Shown here one piece after another: positions 872 to 34,222 of a DNA stretch of 34,387 bases. A program made the translations under genes and the position numbers. Within the stretch, counting starts at the first letter, position 1. Every line of letters starts with the position of its first letter. The notes below the pieces were generated by a model that did no database searches, was not told where the DNA came from, and saw only the letters and a list, made by a program, of their open reading frames with translations. The DNA lies in the IMG/VR virus record IMGVR_UViG_3300045988_107065; one strand, 5' to 3'. The DNA is from a virus (lineage: Duplodnaviria; Heunggongvirae; Uroviricota; Caudoviricetes).

Positions 872-886
872 TTACCTTTCGGGTAA
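872..886. promoter_or_regulatory. TTACC-N5-GGTAA palindrome (site 1), intergenic between tail fibre and the LexA-box gene
   Basis: attaccTTTCGggtaat, perfect inverted repeat. Confidence 0.5.
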
Positions 887-923: not shown

Positions 924-943
924 TACTGTATAAATATACAGTT
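924..943. promoter_or_regulatory. LexA (SOS) box
   Basis: TACTGTATAAATATACAGTT, 18/20 match to TACTGTATATATATACAGTA; CTGT-N8-ACAG core at 926-941; about 20 bp upstream of the ATG at 963. Confidence 0.7.
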
Positions 944-962
944 ATTGCATGGAGAAGATAAG

Positions 963-1220
963 ATGCAGCAGTATCACTATCCACTGGAAGACGGATTTAC
1001 CGAAAGGATTCACACGCCGGGAGGCGTCAGGTCACTGGTGGAGGGATCGCACTTGATGAAATTACTCCGGGATCTCGATAAGGATGGATTTAATGTCGAT
1101 GGCCCACTTGCCGAACTGACTGCACTGATTAACTACGTCACCAGCTCACAGATGTCTATGCAGGATCTGCAAACACATCTCGACTATTGTGCCGAACAAT
1201 TACGAAAACAAACCAGATAA
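963..1220 (+). CDS. Small protein (85 aa) homologous to the C-terminal domain of the adjacent Bro-N protein; candidate SOS-induced antirepressor
   Basis: ATG at 963 with GGAG 8 nt upstream (track ORF starts at an upstream TTG, 945); about 40% identity over about 75 aa with the C-terminus of the 1536-2231 product. Confidence 0.6.
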   Translation: MQQYHYPLEDGFTERIHTPGGVRSLVEGSHLMKLLRDLDKDGFNVDGPLAELTALINYVTSSQMSMQDLQTHLDYCAEQLRKQTR

Positions 1221-1251: not shown

Positions 1252-1266
1252 TTACCTTTGCGGTAA
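1252..1266. promoter_or_regulatory. TTACC-N5-GGTAA palindrome (site 2)
   Basis: atttaccTTTGCggtaaat. Confidence 0.45.
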
Positions 1267-1301: not shown

Positions 1302-1339
1302 GGCACTGGCAAAATCCAGTGCCGGGATTGGCGTCCCGG
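1302..1339 (+). other. Two tandem perfect hairpins (8 bp stem with CAAAAU loop; 6 bp stem with UUGGCG loop)
   Basis: ggcactgg-caaaat-ccagtgcc and ccggga-ttggcg-tcccgg read directly from sequence. Confidence 0.5.
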
Positions 1340-1358
1340 ATTACTAAAAGGCGCATTC

Positions 1359-1378
1359 ACCGCGCAAGCGGTTTTTTT
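1359..1378 (+). terminator. Rho-independent terminator
   Basis: accgc-gcaa-gcggt followed by TTTTTT. Confidence 0.6.
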
Positions 1379-1478
1379 ATGCGTATAGCACGGCCACATT
1401 CGTATTATGGTGGGCTGTGTGGGGGCACCGAAAGGTGCGCCGGGTCCTTTTAGCCGGTTACGCCAACCCTGCACAGTT

Positions 1479-1509
1479 CACCACCAACCGATTGGCGTCG
1501 GTAGTGGTG
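1479..1509 (+). other. Extended hairpin with UUGGCG loop in the Bro-N gene leader
   Basis: caccac-ca-accga-ttggcg-tcggt-a-gtggtg; same loop sequence as the hairpin at 1322-1339. Confidence 0.45.
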
Positions 1510-1535: not shown

Positions 1536-2231
1536 ATGACAGCTACAAAAAGCACGTCCATTTTTTCTTTCGAATCCCAAGCCGATATACGAGTAATCGT
1601 CATTAATGGTGAGCCATGGTTTATCGCTTCAGATGTTTGTCGGGCTATAGGCATAGCAAACCATCGAGATGCTGTTCGAAAACTTGATGATGATGAGAAG
1701 GGCGTCGCTTCAACCGACACCCCTGGCGGTGAACAAGAATCGATCATCATCTCCGAGTCAGGCCTCTACACACTGATCCTCCGCTGCCGCGACGCAGTGA
1801 CACCAGGCACTATCCCCTACCGCTTTCGTAAATGGGTTACAGGTGAGGTTCTTCCTCAGATCCGCCGCACCGGAAGCTACATTAAAAACTCGCTCCCGCA
1901 GGAAGAACGCATAAAGATGGTTGCCGACCAGGTAGCCAACGCCACAGCATCAGCAGTGATGCAGGCAATGAAGATAGAGAACAAAACCTACAGCGCCCCA
2001 CTGAAGCCCGGCTACCGCAGCCTGATTCATTCTCCGTCTGGTGTTCTCGGCCTGACGGAAAACTCACTGCTGATGAATCTGCTGAACCAGTTACAGGAAG
2101 ACGGGCACGACGTATCGGGTGCGGCGGCGGAGCTGACCACCATGTTCTGCTACATTGTTGGTGTGAGCAAATGCCTGCGTGATATCCAGACCCACGCGGA
2201 GTACATCAACGACAAGGCAGGGTTCTTCTGA
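1536..2231 (+). CDS. Bro-N domain protein (phage antirepressor-type, KilAC/Ant-like)
   Basis: N-terminal Bro-N signature (VINGEPWFIASDVCRAIGI...); C-terminal domain paralogous to the 963-1220 product. Confidence 0.8.
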   Translation: MTATKSTSIFSFESQADIRVIVINGEPWFIASDVCRAIGIANHRDAVRKLDDDEKGVASTDTPGGEQESIIISESGLYTLILRCRDAVTPGTIPYRFRKWVTGEVLPQIRRTGSYIKNSLPQEERIKMVADQVANATASAVMQAMKIENKTYSAPLKPGYRSLIHSPSGVLGLTENSLLMNLLNQLQEDGHDVSGAAAELTTMFCYIVGVSKCLRDIQTHAEYINDKAGFF

Positions 2232-15562: not shown

Positions 15563-15582
15563 GTCTGTTACGACCCACAGGT
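15563..15582 (-). other. Stem-loop downstream of the major capsid gene
   Basis: gtgggtc-tgttac-gacccac. Confidence 0.35.
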
Positions 15583-19914: not shown

Positions 19915-19991
19915 GTGGCATTAGCTCAGTTGGACAGAGCAACCGCCTTCTAAGCGGTTGGTCGCAGGTTCGAATCCTGCATGCCACGCCA
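19915..19991 (+). tRNA. tRNA-Arg (anticodon UCU)
   Basis: Cloverleaf folded by hand: acceptor GTGGCAT/ATGCCAC, D-arm GCTC/GAGC, anticodon stem ACCGC/GCGGT with loop CTTCTAA, T-arm GCAGG-TTCGAAT-CCTGC, discriminator G and encoded CCA; 77 nt. Confidence 0.9.
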
Positions 19992-20077: not shown

Positions 20078-20154
20078 CAGCAGGACGCCATTGCGATGAC
20101 TTCATGCTGTAAACCAGTACAGCCACGGAAGGCATAACTCATTGCTTCCAGTTC

Positions 20155-20636: not shown

Positions 20637-22112
20637 TTAAGCATAGGGATCGTAATCTGTGATGGCCTTGCCTTGCTGGTTCTGCTGCCCGGGAATTCGC
20701 AGACGCTTTGACACAGGGAAAGCAAACGTCAGCAGTAGCGCATCGCCTTTACCAGGAGAACGCCCAAGCCGCTCCTTGATATCTTCCTTCGGTTCGATAA
20801 CGATTTTACCGTCCACTCGAACTTTATACTCTGCCGCCGACAGGTCGTCCGCTGTTTCCTGGTCATCCAGCATCCCGCCCAGCCTCAGCCATGTCTTGCA
20901 TGAGTTGAACATCTCCCCACGCTTGTTGAGCATCTGCGGGTCAGTAGACGCGCCACCGAACGGAACAAGTTGCCATGTGCGCCCCCAACCATCACCGATT
21001 GACTTCAGACCGGTACCGTAACCGAAGTCGATGAACACCGCGTCAGCCTGATACTGGTCTTCAAAGTCAGCGATACGCTTCGCCATAATCAGATCGTCGG
21101 TGGTCTTGTTACCAGTCCATAGCACCTTACTGTGCAGCCCCTGCCGCAGGTATATCACAGCGTCATCAACGCCGGAGTATGCCGGGTCAACGCCGATTAT
21201 CACCGGAGCATGCGCCACCTGCGCAGCGGTTACCACCCGTTTCATTGCCTCATCAGTAAGACCGGTAGGGATAAACTGCAATTCAGATGCATCAGGGAAT
21301 ATGCCGCGCACACGGATTTTAACGAAGTCGCTATCTTCCCCGTAGTCATCAACCCATTTCTGCAACTGCTGTTTGTTAGTGCCTTCCACCGTCCGGCTGT
21401 CAATCTGCGCAGTTTTCCAGCGGTGTTTATATTTGCGGAAACATTCGCGGAAACGCCCGGTGTTACGTGTAGGGTTTCCGAATGCCACCCAGATAATCTC
21501 AGTGTCTTCGTCCGTCAGCGCACCCTCTGCTACCTCCCACACCAGATCGGCAATGTTGGATGCTTCGTCGAATACCACGATGATGCGTTTGCGCTCGTTG
21601 TGTAGTCCGGCGAATGCCTCAGTGTTGTGCTCAGACCAGGGGATTGCGTCAGCTCGCCACCGCTTGTCGTGCCCAGGGTCATTGCTGTACATCGCGGTAG
21701 CGGTACAGGTAAACCAGTCTTTCGTGATAGCAAGGTTCGACCACTTGATAATTTCCGGCCAGGTCTTCGTTCGTAGCTGGTTGTCGGTGTTGGCGGTCAC
21801 CACGACCTTACAATCCTCGCAAGTGGACATGCCCCAGTTGATCAGCATTGAGATGAATGCGGATTTACCAATACCGTGACCCGAAGCGCGTGCCAGCATA
21901 AGCGGCTGATAGCGCGTCTCTGGATTCTGCAGGTGATCACGTATCTCTCGGAACGCATCAGCCTGCCACTGACGTGGACCGGTGGCATGTGCTAATTCAG
22001 TCCCCTCTTCCCCCCACGGGAACGCATAGAGGGCATAGCCAAGCGGATCGTGAGTGAACCCTGCAATATCCTCGATCAACTGCTCTTCAGGAGATAACGC
22101 TGTATCTGTCAC
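20637..22112 (-). CDS. Terminase large subunit
   Basis: Walker A (ARASGHGIGKS), Walker B (IIVVFDEAS), C-terminal nuclease-like region; 491 aa; 4 nt overlap with upstream small subunit. Confidence 0.9.
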   Translation of the reverse strand: MTDTALSPEEQLIEDIAGFTHDPLGYALYAFPWGEEGTELAHATGPRQWQADAFREIRDHLQNPETRYQPLMLARASGHGIGKSAFISMLINWGMSTCEDCKVVVTANTDNQLRTKTWPEIIKWSNLAITKDWFTCTATAMYSNDPGHDKRWRADAIPWSEHNTEAFAGLHNERKRIIVVFDEASNIADLVWEVAEGALTDEDTEIIWVAFGNPTRNTGRFRECFRKYKHRWKTAQIDSRTVEGTNKQQLQKWVDDYGEDSDFVKIRVRGIFPDASELQFIPTGLTDEAMKRVVTAAQVAHAPVIIGVDPAYSGVDDAVIYLRQGLHSKVLWTGNKTTDDLIMAKRIADFEDQYQADAVFIDFGYGTGLKSIGDGWGRTWQLVPFGGASTDPQMLNKRGEMFNSCKTWLRLGGMLDDQETADDLSAAEYKVRVDGKIVIEPKEDIKERLGRSPGKGDALLLTFAFPVSKRLRIPGQQNQQGKAITDYDPYA

Positions 22113-22705
22113 TGATTACCATCCTGACGTTCTTTGAGTCGCTTCCTGGCTGCCGCTATGCGATCAGCAATTGTCACATTCACATTAACATCCAGGCGTT
22201 CTTTGAATGCGTTGACGTCGACGTGCTTACCAATCAGTTCGAGGTTCTTCACCTTGTCAGGCCATTTAATTTTTTTGAGGATTGTCTCTATCGAATCCTC
22301 GTTCATGTTCATGATGGTCGATGACAGATCAAAGCCACTAAGCGTAGTGCGCCAGATTTTCGGCCACTCACGGATTGGTTTAAGGCTCCCATCGTCGTTG
22401 AGGATATCGATCACGTCCATCTGGTCGATCTCCACCAGGCGCATGAGAACGTAATCAGCACTGACGCGCATTCGTTTGTTGCGCTCCTCCATCAACTCGG
22501 CAATCCGTTTTTGAATGCGTTCATCGCGCATCATGACACTGGCTTTAACTGCCGCTGTATTTGGGGAGAATCCTGCGTTAATCGCTGCCTGAGTCTGGTT
22601 TTCAGGCGTTTTGATGTATGACTGGCAATAAGCCTCCTGCATTGCTGTGAGCGGCTTAAATTGCGTTGATTTGCGTTTATAGGTTTTAGGTTCAGCAGGC
22701 ATCAT
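22109..22705 (-). CDS. Terminase small subunit
   Basis: Conserved small-terminase N-terminal region (AYCQSYIKTP...AAINAGFSPNTAAVKASVMMRDERIQ); probable ATG at 22705 (track ORF extends to a TTG at 22783). Confidence 0.75.
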   Translation of the reverse strand: MMPAEPKTYKRKSTQFKPLTAMQEAYCQSYIKTPENQTQAAINAGFSPNTAAVKASVMMRDERIQKRIAELMEERNKRMRVSADYVLMRLVEIDQMDVIDILNDDGSLKPIREWPKIWRTTLSGFDLSSTIMNMNEDSIETILKKIKWPDKVKNLELIGKHVDVNAFKERLDVNVNVTIADRIAAARKRLKERQDGNQ

Positions 22706-22823
22706 AACCACCGTGGTAATAGTTACCGTTGTGGTAATAGTACCATGCAAAATAAAGCCGCCATAGTTGGCGGCAGTATTCAAAACCCATCAAATTCATC
22801 ATGCATAATCTACTCGTAACATG

Positions 22824-25973: not shown

Positions 25974-25988
25974 TTACCTCTGAGGTAA
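25974..25988. promoter_or_regulatory. TTACC-N5-GGTAA palindrome (site 5), overlapping the RBS of the 25617-25970 gene
   Basis: atttaccTCTGAggtaatt. Confidence 0.45.
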
Positions 25989-26035
25989 TTAAAAACCACA
26001 TAAGACACGAAATCAATAGAGTTTAGAATATTTTG

Positions 26036-26050
26036 TTACCCTACAGGTAA
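26036..26050. promoter_or_regulatory. TTACC-N5-GGTAA palindrome (site 6)
   Basis: gttaccCTACAggtaatt. Confidence 0.45.
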
Positions 26051-26087
26051 TTATCAAGGCGTAAAAAAATGCGCTATCGCGCTGGTA

Positions 26088-27996: not shown

Positions 27997-28051
27997 GAAT
28001 AGATATGAAAAGACCGCCGGATGGCGGTCTACAGAGGGTTGTGGCTGGATA

Positions 28052-28282
28052 TCATGAGTAGAAGAAGTATGCCAGTTCTGCTTTTGAGCGCAGCCATTGT
28101 CTTGATTTACAGGCTTTAAAAAGCCCATCCATCAATACCTTACCTGGCATTTTGCGCTTACCTGTTAAGTGAGTCTGGATATAGTGACTCGTCGTTCCGG
28201 CTTCCTGTGCGAAGGCTTCACGCTCATCCGGAGTAAGTGCAAGCCAGTGCTTTTTGAAATCGAAATGTCCGTTATCGCTCAT
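28052..28282 (-). CDS. Cro-like HTH DNA-binding protein (76 aa)
   Basis: HTH segment EAGTTSHYIQTHLTGKRKMP resembles Cro/YdaS-type HTH; first gene of the minus-strand operon, divergent from the repressor. Confidence 0.6.
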   Translation of the reverse strand: MSDNGHFDFKKHWLALTPDEREAFAQEAGTTSHYIQTHLTGKRKMPGKVLMDGLFKACKSRQWLRSKAELAYFFYS

Positions 28283-28318
28283 AGCTATTGCCTGATATTT
28301 ATTTCAGATAATAAATAT

Positions 28319-28381
28319 TCACCTATAAGGTAACAAAAATCAAGGATAGTTACCCATGAGGTGCATTTACCTGTTGGGTAA
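28319..28381. promoter_or_regulatory. Divergent promoter/operator region with three adjacent palindromic sites (two imperfect, one perfect TTACC-N5-GGTAA)
   Basis: tcaccTATAAggtaa (28319-28333), ttaccCATGAggtgc (28350-28364), ttaccTGTTGggtaa (28367-28381) between the divergent cro-like and repressor genes. Confidence 0.55.
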
Positions 28382-28436
28382 TATTGCTTTAAATTGAATC
28401 ATCTTCTGATTCAGATATGAGGCGATTTTCCAGAAA

Positions 28437-29021
28437 ATGAAAAGTATCCAGGACGTCCGCAGGCAAAATCTCAACGACTTGATCGACCGTGAATTCAATG
28501 GTGTTCAGACGCGGATGGCTGAAAAACTTGGAACTCAGGCAAATCTGGTAAACCGCTGGGCTCTTGGCAAGAAGGTTATCGGCGACCAGGTTGCGCGAAA
28601 AATTGAAGCTGCCGCCAATAAACCCCGTAACTGGCTTGATATCGATCGCTCGCTTTCTCAGGAAGGTTTTCAGCCTGTCGGACCAAGCGACATTGGTCAA
28701 CTGGCGGCTCACAACCTGGAACGCTGGATGAGCGAAAGCCGCGACCTTTCAACGCAGGGAAAACTTCACCGCGCATCCGGCGTCGCCCAGGTGACAATCA
28801 GCCGCCTGTTAAACAATGAGGTCAGCGTTTCCATTTCCACCCTGGAGAATGTTGCATCCGCATTCGGGCGTCACGGCTATGAATTACTGATTCACCCGCA
28901 CGACCCTGCGACTATCAACTATGACCGCTCGCGCTACGCTTTGTTACCCGAAACCGAGAAAGCAAAGATCGAAAGTTACATTGAATTTGTCATCAACCAG
29001 AACGAAAAAAACAAACAATAA
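28437..29021 (+). CDS. Repressor-like protein with two tandem XRE-type HTH domains and no peptidase domain
   Basis: Two HTH-like segments (QTRMAEKLGTQANLVNRW; ASGVAQVTISRLLNNE); no Ser/Lys S24 autocleavage motifs seen. Confidence 0.65.
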   Translation: MKSIQDVRRQNLNDLIDREFNGVQTRMAEKLGTQANLVNRWALGKKVIGDQVARKIEAAANKPRNWLDIDRSLSQEGFQPVGPSDIGQLAAHNLERWMSESRDLSTQGKLHRASGVAQVTISRLLNNEVSVSISTLENVASAFGRHGYELLIHPHDPATINYDRSRYALLPETEKAKIESYIEFVINQNEKNKQ

Positions 29022-29041: not shown

Positions 29042-29067
29042 AAGCCGCCTTCTGGCGGCTTTTTTAT
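29042..29067 (+). terminator. Rho-independent terminator after the repressor gene
   Basis: aagccgcc-ttct-ggcggctt followed by TTTT. Confidence 0.65.
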
Positions 29068-29078
29068 TGCCTGTTCGA

Positions 29079-29093
29079 TTACCTAACGGGTAA
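29079..29093. promoter_or_regulatory. TTACC-N5-GGTAA palindrome (site 9)
   Basis: gattaccTAACGggtaatt. Confidence 0.45.
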
Positions 29094-29140
29094 TTTTTTT
29101 AACTCATATCTATTGACATCAAACCATATACGCATAATTA

Positions 29141-29155
29141 TTACCTCAACGGTAA
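29141..29155. promoter_or_regulatory. TTACC-N5-GGTAA palindrome (site 10) immediately downstream of a TTGACA (29113-29118) promoter-like element
   Basis: attaccTCAACggtaac. Confidence 0.5.
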
Positions 29156-29329: not shown

Positions 29330-29629
29330 ATGAACGTTAATCAGCAGAAAAATCTTCAAAAAATCATGCTGGCATTCGACAAGGACTACCGTCTGTCAGA
29401 ACAGCTATATGACCGACAAGTTGAACTGATTGAGAGTATCCGGCTTCATCAACTGGCATCAACTTTCGACGTTGTAACAGTTAAAGGCGTTCGCCAGGAA
29501 GTACTGGAGGCCGCTAAAGACAGCCCTGAGTTCGAAGAACTAATGGATGCCTACCGGCGCGAGGCAATGGCAATTATCGCCCGCTGGGATCTGGCTGATC
29601 AGCTTGATGGGCAGAGGGACGCGGCATGA
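29330..29629 (+). CDS. Hypothetical protein (about 99 aa) upstream of the recombination genes
   Basis: ATG directly after the preceding stop (TGATAATG); track ORF starts at 29315. Confidence 0.45.
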   Translation: MNVNQQKNLQKIMLAFDKDYRLSEQLYDRQVELIESIRLHQLASTFDVVTVKGVRQEVLEAAKDSPEFEELMDAYRREAMAIIARWDLADQLDGQRDAA

Positions 29630-30447
29630 AACCGGGAATTTATTTCGACATCAGCAACGAAGACTACCACGCCGGTGACGGCGTGAGTAAGTCGCAACTG
29701 GACATGGTTGCCAAGAATCCGGCGCTTCTTAAATGGGTTCAGGCAGCACCAGAAGACGAAGAGAAAAAGTCTGCACTGGATATGGGAACCGCATTGCACT
29801 GTCTGCTTCTGGAGCCTGGAGAGTTCGACAAACGCTTCATTGTTTCACCGAAATTCGATCGTCGGACGAAACAAGGTAAAGCTGACGAAGAGGAATTTCT
29901 TCGTGATGTGGCGGATATGGGGATTACGGTACTTGATGCCGAGCAGTGGCGGAAACTGGAGCTGATGCGTGATAGCGCAATGGCTCACCCGGCGGCACGC
30001 TGGATGCTGGAAGCACCTGGTTACTGCGAAGCATCAATGTACTGGAACGATGAAGAGACGGGGGAGTTGTGCCGAATTCGTCCAGACAAATGGCTGAACG
30101 AGCACAACGTGATCGTCGACGTGAAAAAGGTTGCAGATATGGACCGTTTTGCACGCCACATCGAGGAATTCCGCTACCACGTGCAGGACGCAATGTACCG
30201 CGAAGGCGCAATGAGGGTTACTGGTCAGCCGCATGGTTTTTTCTTTCTTGCCGTGAGCGAAAGCATTGATTGTGGTCGGTATCCGGTACGCGTGTTCGAG
30301 CTGGATGCGCAGGATGTCGATGCCGGGCACGCTCTGTTCCGCCGGGATCTGAATACCTATCACGAATGCCGCATCAATGATGAATGGGGCGGTGTGGAAA
30401 TCATTAAACGCCCTGAGTGGGCACGCAAACAGGATATGTACATATGA
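29626..30447 (+). CDS. PD-(D/E)XK recombination exonuclease (RecE C-terminal/DUF3799-like)
   Basis: N-terminal FDISNEDYHAGDGVSKSQL motif, D...DVKK nuclease core; ATGA overlap with RecT-like gene downstream. Confidence 0.7.
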   Translation: MKPGIYFDISNEDYHAGDGVSKSQLDMVAKNPALLKWVQAAPEDEEKKSALDMGTALHCLLLEPGEFDKRFIVSPKFDRRTKQGKADEEEFLRDVADMGITVLDAEQWRKLELMRDSAMAHPAARWMLEAPGYCEASMYWNDEETGELCRIRPDKWLNEHNVIVDVKKVADMDRFARHIEEFRYHVQDAMYREGAMRVTGQPHGFFFLAVSESIDCGRYPVRVFELDAQDVDAGHALFRRDLNTYHECRINDEWGGVEIIKRPEWARKQDMYI

Positions 30448-31385
30448 GCAACGACATCGCAAACATCAACGCACCAGTAGACACAGCAATCGCTGGAACT
30501 GCTGCAACTATTTTCAGCCCAGACGGCTTGAACCAACTGATGAAATTCGCCGAGGTAATGGCGCAAAGCCGCGTAACGGTACCGGCGCACCTCGCCGGGA
30601 AACCAGCTGATTGCATGGCCGTGGCAATGCAGGCTGCGCAGTGGGGAATGAACCCGTTTGCCGTGGCTCAGAAAACCCATGTTGTGAACGGCACGCTAGG
30701 TTATGAAGCCCAATTAGTAAACGCAGTTATCTCAACGATGTCGCCAACAAAAGATCGCATCAACTACGAGTGGTTCGGGCCGTGGGAACGCGTGATCGGT
30801 AAGTTTGTTGAGAAAACATCCAAAAACGGCAATCCATATATCGCACCAGGCTGGACTCTAAAAGACGAAGAAGGCTGCGGTGTTCGCGTATGGGCAACCA
30901 TGAAGGGCGAGGATCAACCTCGAGTGCTTGAGTTAATGCTGTCTCAAGCACAGGTAAGAAACTCCACACTTTGGGCCAGTGATCCGAAACAACAACTCGC
31001 ATACCTTGCGACAAAACGCTGGTCTCGCCTGCACTGTCCTGACGTAATCATGGGCGTCTACACCCCAGACGAATTACAGGAAACGGCACCGCGCGTTGAG
31101 CGAGACATTACTCCGCAAACGACCACTGCTGCGGGAATGAACAGTCTGATCAACGCTAAACCAGCGAAAAAGCCTGATGAGCAAACGCGTAAATCGGACA
31201 GCCGTGATCCAGAAGAAATGCTGATGGCCTTTACCAGCGCAGCGATGAATTACAGCACTGTCTCCGAACTGGATAAGGCTTACAAATACATTGCACAAAA
31301 ACTTTCAGATGATGACGAACTGCTGGCAAAAGCCACCGACGTTTACAGCGTTCGTCGGGAAGAATTAAACGAAACATCTATGTAA
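30444..31385 (+). CDS. recT: RecT-family single-strand annealing protein
   Basis: Sequence characteristic of the RecT family; coupled to the exonuclease gene (start ATG at 30444 overlapping the upstream TGA). Confidence 0.8.
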   Translation: MSNDIANINAPVDTAIAGTAATIFSPDGLNQLMKFAEVMAQSRVTVPAHLAGKPADCMAVAMQAAQWGMNPFAVAQKTHVVNGTLGYEAQLVNAVISTMSPTKDRINYEWFGPWERVIGKFVEKTSKNGNPYIAPGWTLKDEEGCGVRVWATMKGEDQPRVLELMLSQAQVRNSTLWASDPKQQLAYLATKRWSRLHCPDVIMGVYTPDELQETAPRVERDITPQTTTAAGMNSLINAKPAKKPDEQTRKSDSRDPEEMLMAFTSAAMNYSTVSELDKAYKYIAQKLSDDDELLAKATDVYSVRREELNETSM

Positions 31386-32929: not shown

Positions 32930-34180
32930 TTATTCCCCCGCCATCCATTTCTCAAACTTCGACGGGGAGAACGGAATCAGATCCGTATGCTCCCCGTCAA
33001 TCCAGGAATCAATCATATCGGCCCACTGCTGCAACATGTAGGCGCGCTGTCTGGCGTATTCCGCTTTGTTATATACGGCGCGCACACCTTTCTGCTCATG
33101 TGCCAGAGCCTTTTCAATCCAGTCTGAAGGATAACCAGCCTCATGCAATAACGTACTGGCTGTACGGCGCATATCGTGTACGGTGAAATCCTGAATATGC
33201 TCACCATCTTCATTTATTATTTTCACCGTTCTGTCGATCAGAGAGTTCAGCGCGGCATTAGATAATGGCTTCCGGAAATTGTAACGACCAGGAACCAGAT
33301 ATTCACTTCCACCAGCGCACATCTGCAACCCGACCAATATATCCTGAGCCTGTTTAGGCAGGTAAATAACATGCGCCCGGCTTCCCTTCATGCGGTCTGA
33401 AGGAATTGTCCATGTCCATTTTTTAAAATCTATTTCATCCCACGTTGCATTGGTGAATTCGCCCTTACGAACCATAGTGATAAGCACCAGTTTTAAAGCC
33501 ATTTTCATAGTGCCCATAGCACCAATGGCATCCAACGTGCGGAAGAACAGGCCAATTTCTTCTGGTGTCAGTGTTCGCTCTCGTGGTTTAAATATGGCGA
33601 TAGACGAAGGCTTAATGTCAGCCGCAGGATTAAACAAACCATGACCACGGTCATTGGCGTGACGGTATACGCTGCTGATGATCTCCCTGGCCTGCACTGC
33701 TGTTGCCCGGCCACCGCGTTCGACAATCCGGTCACACAAATCACGAACCATCGATGTGGTAATTTCAGCCATCATTTTGTTGCCAAGAACCGGAAGTATG
33801 TCACGGTCGATCACTGCCTGCTTCATTGCGCGGGTACTTTCAGCCAGGATGACGTGTTTCATATAACTGTCGGTATGTACCGCAAACGTTTCGGCACCAC
33901 GAATCTTTTTGATACCGTCACGTTTAGCCGCAGCCGGTGACTGGCCTGCTTTAAGCAGCTTCTTTGCAGCAATCAGTTCTTCCCGCGCTTCTGCCAGGCT
34001 GATACCGTCACGCCCATACTGCCCGATTACCAGTGTTTCGCGGCGACCGTTGATACGGTAGTCATAACGAAATGAGACCGTGCCTGACGTAAGCACAGCT
34101 ACATACAGCCCGTCACGATCGGAGACCTTGTACAGTTTGTCCTGCGGCTTGAGGTTTTTTAATTTTGTATCGGTAAGCAC
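32930..34180 (-). CDS. int: Tyrosine integrase, P4-type (N-terminal arm-binding domain plus catalytic domain)
   Basis: N-terminal MLTDTKLKNLKP...GLYVAV...FRYDYR arm-binding motif; C-terminal HDMRRT...VRAVYNKAEY with catalytic Tyr. Confidence 0.9.
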   Translation of the reverse strand: MLTDTKLKNLKPQDKLYKVSDRDGLYVAVLTSGTVSFRYDYRINGRRETLVIGQYGRDGISLAEAREELIAAKKLLKAGQSPAAAKRDGIKKIRGAETFAVHTDSYMKHVILAESTRAMKQAVIDRDILPVLGNKMMAEITTSMVRDLCDRIVERGGRATAVQAREIISSVYRHANDRGHGLFNPAADIKPSSIAIFKPRERTLTPEEIGLFFRTLDAIGAMGTMKMALKLVLITMVRKGEFTNATWDEIDFKKWTWTIPSDRMKGSRAHVIYLPKQAQDILVGLQMCAGGSEYLVPGRYNFRKPLSNAALNSLIDRTVKIINEDGEHIQDFTVHDMRRTASTLLHEAGYPSDWIEKALAHEQKGVRAVYNKAEYARQRAYMLQQWADMIDSWIDGEHTDLIPFSPSKFEKWMAGE

Positions 34181-34222
34181 AATTCACCCGTATAGAAACC
34201 ATTTTCATGACGGTATGAGAGT

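Follow-up and report, generated by a model that had tools for sequence, protein, structure and literature searches.

Probable lysis-lysogeny switch of a phiV10-like Escherichia coli prophage, with a two-HTH repressor that lacks an autocleavage domain and an antirepressor behind a LexA box

How does a prophage repressor that carries two helix-turn-helix (HTH) modules in a single chain, and no autocleavage domain, recognize its operators, and how is it removed from them during induction? The question is raised by positions 28052-29021 of a 34,387-nt stretch of DNA (the window, meaning the whole stretch that was analysed). The window is a phiV10-like prophage (Uetakevirus, epsilon15-like podophage) with 98.6% identity to Escherichia phage phiV10 across the region, and to many relatives too. 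The locus comprises exactly two divergent ORFs, of 76 aa on the minus strand and 194 aa on the plus strand, with a 154 bp operator region between them. Past the 76-aa gene, the minus strand continues with a small ORF, a DnaT/O-like initiator and a lambda-P-like loader, and downstream of the 194-aa gene the plus strand carries RecE-like and RecT genes. With these neighbours the locus is a classical immunity region, as an earlier note on this DNA had proposed, and the divergent rep/cro-like pair sits between the early-left and early-right operons. We consider it very likely that the locus controls the choice between lysis and lysogeny in a phiV10/epsilon15-like E. coli prophage, by means of a non-cleavable repressor (Rep), a Cro-like partner and a LexA-controlled antirepressor (Ant). 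The cro-rep region was present at an identity of at least 95% in 540 of 5426 complete E. coli genomes (∼10%). The genes and terminators of the immunity region are:

28437..29021, plus strand: rep, 194-aa non-cleavable master repressor of the SPC32H-Rep family, 100% identical to PhiV10p40 and ZX5 ORF21
28052..28282, minus strand: 76-aa Cro-like HTH protein (PhiV10p41), 78% identical to SPC32H_042
28011..28030, minus strand: intrinsic terminator after the cro-like gene
29042..29061, plus strand: intrinsic terminator after rep

Two observations concern other genes of the prophage. The RecE-like (273 aa, 29626-30447, plus strand) and RecT (322 aa, GTG start, 30417-31385, plus strand) proteins are encoded by separate overlapping ORFs in the window; they are also separate genes in ZX5, and the phiV10 record annotates one 1761-bp RecE-RecT fusion CDS. 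The interval that separates the head operon from an Sf6-gene-66-like ORF contains a tRNA-Arg(TCT) at 19915-19991 (plus strand).

Both structural claims made earlier for the repressor, two XRE-type HTHs in one chain and no LexA/CI-type S24 peptidase, held up. HTH_3 was found in two stretches of Rep by Pfam, and an AlphaFold2 model (46 homologues, pLDDT 76) contained two XRE-like domains of 4-5 helices each (helices 4-59 and 82-151), separated by a disordered linker (65-82) and followed by a long C-terminal helix; Foldseek agreed. The protein divides as follows:

28437..28628, plus strand: Rep residues 1-64, N-terminal XRE/Cro-type HTH and putative DNA-binding domain, net charge +6 (role from PMC9986798)
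28692..28898, plus strand: Rep residues 86-154, second HTH_3-type module, above the Pfam gathering score, corresponding to the middle dimerization domain of SPC32H Rep
28899..29018, plus strand: Rep residues 155-194, C-terminal tail, corresponding to the SPC32H tetramerization/Ant-binding domain (CAD / TetDloop), 47% identity

When scanned alone, residues 86-154 passed two gathering scores (HTH_3, 27.2 bits against 23; HTH_26, 26.2 bits against 22), so the second HTH, for which the earlier note had suggested a domain search, is profile-supported. It is the better supported of the two, because residues 1-85 scanned alone remained under the cut-offs (HTH_3, 15.7 bits; YdaS_toxin, 20.3 bits). The assignment of residues 1-85 as an HTH is supported by the predicted fold and by homology to the DNA-binding domain of SPC32H Rep. 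A recent tandem duplication of the HTH was considered and rejected, because the N-terminal and middle domains failed to align: BLASTP returned no alignment between them, and a local alignment was trivial.

Autocleavage was rejected as well. Peptidase_S24 gave no match in Pfam to full-length Rep at E≤1, or to its fragments at E≤10, and neither Ala-Gly nor Cys-Gly dipeptides occur anywhere in the 194 residues. Rep has no S24 domain, Ser-Lys dyad region or Ala-Gly site, and homology to SPC32H Rep covers it from end to end. NCBIfam searches with Rep, the Cro-like protein, Ant and the second antirepressor (Bro-N-Ant, described below) yielded nothing useful.

A profile search of viral contigs with the Rep alignment returned 80 loci, all 100% identical and of no use for covariation, and a divergent sample of four Rep variants (54-65% identity) was used instead. 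Across the Rep family the N-terminal domain carries a net charge of ∼+6 and the second module one of ∼0 to +1 (+6 and 0 in the window's Rep), a split that fits a DNA-binding N-terminal domain and a self-associating middle module. Residues N36, R40 and W41, in the helix-3 region of the N-terminal domain, are invariant across the family. The middle domain retains the signature of a canonical recognition helix, in which R123 never varies and Q118 hardly does, and it may therefore make a residual contact with DNA.

The layout of Rep is that of a repressor whose structure is solved. Rep matched SPC32H Rep (PDB 5D50 chain A; phmmer E 4e-42, residues 1-190 against 2-197) and the SPC32H Rep 92-198 fragment (5D4Z; E 4e-20), and Foldseek ranked these two entries first (TM 0.77 on the 92-198 fragment), with generic XRE HTH proteins next. 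The SPC32H Rep-Ant switch was reportedly described by Kim and Ryu in 2013 (J Virol) and by Kim et al. in 2016 (PNAS). Global identity between the two repressors is 42.7%, with 53% in the N-terminal domain, 38% in the linker, 32% in the middle domain and 47% in the C-terminal tail. AlphaFold2 secondary structure and Foldseek place in Rep the three-part architecture laid out in PMC9986798, which assigns to SPC32H Rep an N-terminal DNA-binding domain, a middle dimerization domain and a C-terminal tetramerization domain that also binds Ant. According to PMC9638917, SPC32H Rep is a tetramer on DNA and its dimer binds weakly, the two DNA-binding domains on one palindrome belong to different Rep dimers, and an Ant tetramer grips two Rep dimers and splits the Rep tetramer. 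Induction of SPC32H, as outlined in PMC7380047, runs from LexA self-cleavage to Ant synthesis, without repressor cleavage. By analogy, the second HTH of the window's Rep would be a dimerization module, and this Rep may likewise bind DNA as a tetramer and be released by Ant. Tetramerization and Ant binding are extrapolated from SPC32H because Rep is only 43% identical to the crystallized protein, and 32% in the middle domain.

A closer relative has been studied in vivo. Phage vB_EcoP_ZX5 (ZX5) shares its Rep, small Ant and Bro-N-Ant with the window at 100% identity, and its Cro-like protein at 97%. When ZX5 ORF21, which is Rep, was overexpressed, the transcripts for holin and endolysin fell by 99.97-99.99% and free phage disappeared, and overexpression of ORF4, which is the Bro-N antirepressor, reduced the titre of the prophage ∼1000-fold (PMC9782041). 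Given this identity, the window's Rep would be expected to repress lytic transcription in vivo as published for ORF21. The antirepressor in the ZX5 experiments was Bro-N-Ant rather than the small Ant under LexA control; the ZX5 record annotates the latter just as a hypothetical protein, and a text search of PMC9782041 found no mention of SPC32H or LexA. PhiV10p40 is also 100% identical to Rep, and its record reads 'two helix-turn-helix motifs (PF01381); similar to putative repressor epsilon15p38'. Neither ZX5 nor phiV10 p40 differs in substance from the window. The novelty implied when the locus was first noted is therefore absent: the switch is already known, the two-HTH remark is public, repressor tests on the identical protein are published (PMC9782041), and the structure and mechanism of a homologue are solved. 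A prophage of the phiV10 species showed 21-fold induction by a DNA-damaging microcin (bioRxiv 10.64898/2026.05.26.727859).

The name Cro-like, given earlier to the divergent 76-aa gene, proved apt at the level of fold. The protein is predicted to adopt a lambda-repressor-like 5-helix HTH fold, and its gene is divergent from rep across the 154 bp and is the first of the replication-side operon; no PDB sequence matched it, even at E≤10.

The palindrome TTACC-N5-GGTAA, with at most one mismatch, occurs at 14 sites in the window, against 0.66 expected, and its core is tied to one spacing, with 12 occurrences at N5 and 0-1 at other spacings. Neither the window nor SPC32H contains another enriched palindrome. 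At least 11 of 15 sites fall within the 6% of the window left uncovered by greedy ORF calls, a map that over-calls coding sequence; the four sites 'inside an ORF' are in ORFs that Rfam matches and annotated relatives mark as spurious or over-extended. The sites, with the promoter-like elements beside them, are as follows (those without a strand are unstranded; single numbers are site positions):

28319..28333: operator site TCACCTATAAGGTAA, inside promoter-like TTGTTA-17-TATTAT (28336-28308, minus strand) facing the cro-like gene
28350..28364: TTACCCATGAGGTGC, a degenerate operator centred 17 bp away from the next one, with the junction GGTGCATTTACC kept in relatives
28367..28381: TTACCTGTTGGGTAA, an operator 56 bp ahead of the ATG of rep, overlapping a weak promoter-like TTTACC-18-TAAATT facing rep
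29079..29093: putative left operator, upstream member of a 62-bp pair bracketing the early-left promoter
29113..29141, plus strand: early-left promoter-like site TTGACA-17-AATTAT (10/12) for the recE/recT-side genes, the best promoter match in the region
29141..29155: putative left operator, directly adjoining the -10 hexamer of that promoter
872..886: motif site on the upstream side of the ant promoter region and its LexA box
1252..1266: motif site directly adjoining a promoter-like TTGCAA-17-TATATT (1224-1252), before isrK, C4 and the second antirepressor
2304: motif site after the second antirepressor operon
19578: motif site upstream of the head operon
22705 and 22723: motif sites at the terS start
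25974 and 26036: motif sites after the P-like gene, a 62-bp pair
27982: motif site after the cro terminator
34223: motif site upstream of int

The sites mark about ten intergenic boundaries throughout the prophage, beyond the immunity region, and syntenic sites are found in SPC32H and Tyrion. Additional promoter-like sites lie at 845-873 and 26002-26057. In relatives, rep is preceded by three sites, at ∼-118, -87 and -70 relative to its ATG, and followed by a pair whose members are +58 and +120 past the stop codon. This layout is present in SPC32H, in Tyrion, and in three of four further Rep variants (54-65% identity), and the fourth variant (54%) has just a -62 site at no more than one mismatch, and a 75-bp pair. 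Pairs exactly 62 bp apart occur at two loci in each of three phages (Rep 42-78% identical to the window's), at 25974/26036 and 29079/29141 in the window, at 33604/33666 and 35972/36034 in SPC32H, and at 34195/34257 and 37265/37327 in Tyrion.

A separate observation concerns terS. Its longest ORF (22109-22783, minus strand) encodes 224 aa from a TTG start, as in phiV10, and its opening 26 codons include two operator sites; in the annotations of SPC32H and Tyrion, terS has 197 aa and the sites lie immediately before it. The true start in the window is therefore probably near 22702.

We infer from the placement of the motif that Rep, rather than the Cro-like protein alone, binds TTACC-N5-GGTAA. 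It might be argued that the palindrome is the site of the Cro-like protein or of another phage regulator and that Rep recognizes a different sequence, because the half-sites are identical in SPC32H, to which the Cro-like protein is 78% conserved and Rep 43% (53% in the N-terminal domain). We regard this as improbable, since the sites occupy the positions expected of repressor operators, overlapping both divergent early promoters and abutting the early-left -10, no other palindrome is enriched in the window or in SPC32H, and the helix-3 region of the Rep N-terminal domain keeps N36, R40 and W41 invariant across the family. In lambdoid switches CI and Cro share operators. A related question is how many HTHs of one Rep chain touch the DNA. 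The earlier note had suggested that a single-chain, two-HTH repressor could read the palindrome as a monomer or form higher-order assemblies; the latter would apply, but the solved homologue (PMC9986798, PMC9638917) and the domain charges speak against the former. It is the second module that exceeds the HTH_3 and HTH_26 gathering scores in Pfam and that conserves Q118 and R123 in its helix-3 region, as expected if both HTHs of one chain contacted DNA, with the monomer spanning the palindrome or the second HTH reading an extra DNA element. However, PMC9986798 and PMC9638917 make this module the dimerization domain of SPC32H Rep and require the tetramer for DNA, and the net charge of the module is ∼0 compared with +6 for the N-terminal domain. 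Moreover, a perfect palindrome calls for a pair of identical readers, whereas the two modules have no detectable sequence similarity. A single chain reading DNA with both modules is thus very improbable.

It is also hardly credible that the 194-aa protein is a generic XRE or antitoxin-type regulator and not a master repressor. One phage record says 'VapI antidote', and the BP9 annotation and weak, sub-threshold NCBIfam matches to HigA and HipB point in that direction, but all of these matches are far under the cut-offs. The gene lies where cI would be, flanked by the early-left and early-right operons, the identical ZX5 protein represses lytic genes (PMC9782041), and the homologue SPC32H Rep is a proven repressor. 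We rejected the antitoxin reading on the sub-threshold matches, the position of the gene and the repression by the identical protein.

With Rep as the preferred reader of the motif, we also infer a role for each operator and the oligomeric state of the window's Rep. The spacing of the 62-bp pair (∼six helical turns), which at the early-left locus brackets a promoter, suggests an arrangement that would fit one tetramer in a micro-loop. The spread of the motif over many boundaries suggests direct repression of many transcription units. It is a tentative proposal, which we consider doubtful at present, that Rep does not act at two operators in lambda style but, possibly together with the Cro-like protein, regulates directly across the whole genome.

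The route of induction is suggested by a second region of the window, which carries two antirepressor genes and two RNA families:

926..941, unstranded: LexA box CTGTATAAATATACAG, near-consensus, 22 bp upstream of the ant ATG
963..1220, plus strand: ant, 85-aa antirepressor, 88% identical to SPC32H Ant (5D50 chain E), E 4e-47
1303..1378, plus strand: isrK-family Hfq-binding sRNA (Rfam 77.9 bits, gathering 50)
1403..1488, plus strand: C4 antisense RNA family (Rfam 77.7 bits, gathering 45)
1536..2231, plus strand: second antirepressor, 231 aa, Bro-N fused to an Ant-like C-terminal domain, 100% identical to ZX5 ORF4

The idea that induction needs an antirepressor fits this arrangement, in which a protein 88% identical to the crystallized SPC32H Ant is encoded directly behind a LexA box and would be made upon DNA damage. 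The box is likewise positioned in SPC32H and ZX5, and Tyrion has a single LexA-like box, in the antirepressor/tail-fibre region. Further CTGT-N8-ACAG matches at 20107-20122 and 15565-15580 are probably chance, because 0.5 are expected. Ant is 88% identical to its SPC32H counterpart, compared with 43% for its presumed target Rep (47% in the C-terminal, Ant-binding part). The residues at the interface may form a conserved subset; alternatively, Ant may accept divergent repressors, and such tolerance, if true, would allow cross-talk between prophages.

The isrK and C4 RNAs lie between ant and the Bro-N-Ant gene, and the C-terminal domain of Bro-N-Ant is homologous to SPC32H Ant (E 1e-13). The order isrK, C4, Bro-N-Ant looks like the RNA control in P1 immI or Gifsy-1 isrK-anrP, and by this resemblance the second antirepressor may be under similar control. 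P1 immI (c4-icd-ant) and Gifsy-1 isrK-orf45-anrP likewise have C4/isrK-family RNAs directly upstream of an antirepressor gene (Gifsy-1: PMC7380047). Unlike these systems, the protein in the window has an SPC32H-Ant-like domain, and its locus is immediately downstream of the LexA-controlled ant.

We propose the following course of events. The basic N-terminal HTH domain of Rep would bind the TTACC-N5-GGTAA operators, and the second HTH-type module and the C-terminal tail would serve self-association, to a dimer and then a tetramer, and not DNA reading. Bound Rep would shut both divergent early operons, given the three sites in the interval that separates rep from the cro-like gene and the 62-bp pair on either side of the early-left promoter. 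Rep would not cleave itself; DNA damage would take LexA off the box at the ant promoter, Ant would be made, and its binding to the C-terminal part of Rep would take Rep off the DNA. The Cro-like protein would then probably sit on the same operators, keeping rep off.

Compared with lambda CI and LexA, Rep shares an XRE-type N-terminal HTH and a gene divergent from cro, between the early-left and early-right operons. It differs in having no S24 domain, Ala-Gly site or Ser-Lys dyad region, and in a C-terminal part that consists of a second HTH-type module and a short tetramerization tail. The Gifsy repressors with LexA-controlled antirepressors, and CI/Tum of coliphage 186, follow the same logic of a non-cleavable repressor and a small SOS-controlled antirepressor (PMC7380047). 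The likeness of Gifsy and 186 to the window is functional, and SPC32H Rep and Ant alone gave significant PDB sequence matches. SPC32H and the window share the genus Uetakevirus, the gene order, and the length and three-part architecture of Rep. They also share an Ant of 88% identity behind a LexA box beside the tail-spike gene, and the TTACC-N5-GGTAA motif, whose layout in both includes a trio in the rep-cro interval and 62-bp pairs. In contrast, their Reps are only 43% identical, and the window has Bro-N-Ant with isrK and C4, whereas no such gene is annotated in SPC32H.

The value of these results is in annotation. In ∼10% of complete E. coli genomes the region is labelled just 'helix-turn-helix domain-containing protein' and 'hypothetical protein', and it can now be annotated with confidence as an SPC32H-type Rep / Cro-like / Ant switch, SOS-inducible via LexA and an antirepressor rather than by repressor cleavage. 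For engineers of phiV10-type reporter phages, the motif map is a set of candidate Rep-controlled promoters. If it is true that Rep also represses the antirepressor loci, induction would include a positive-feedback commitment step triggered by LexA.
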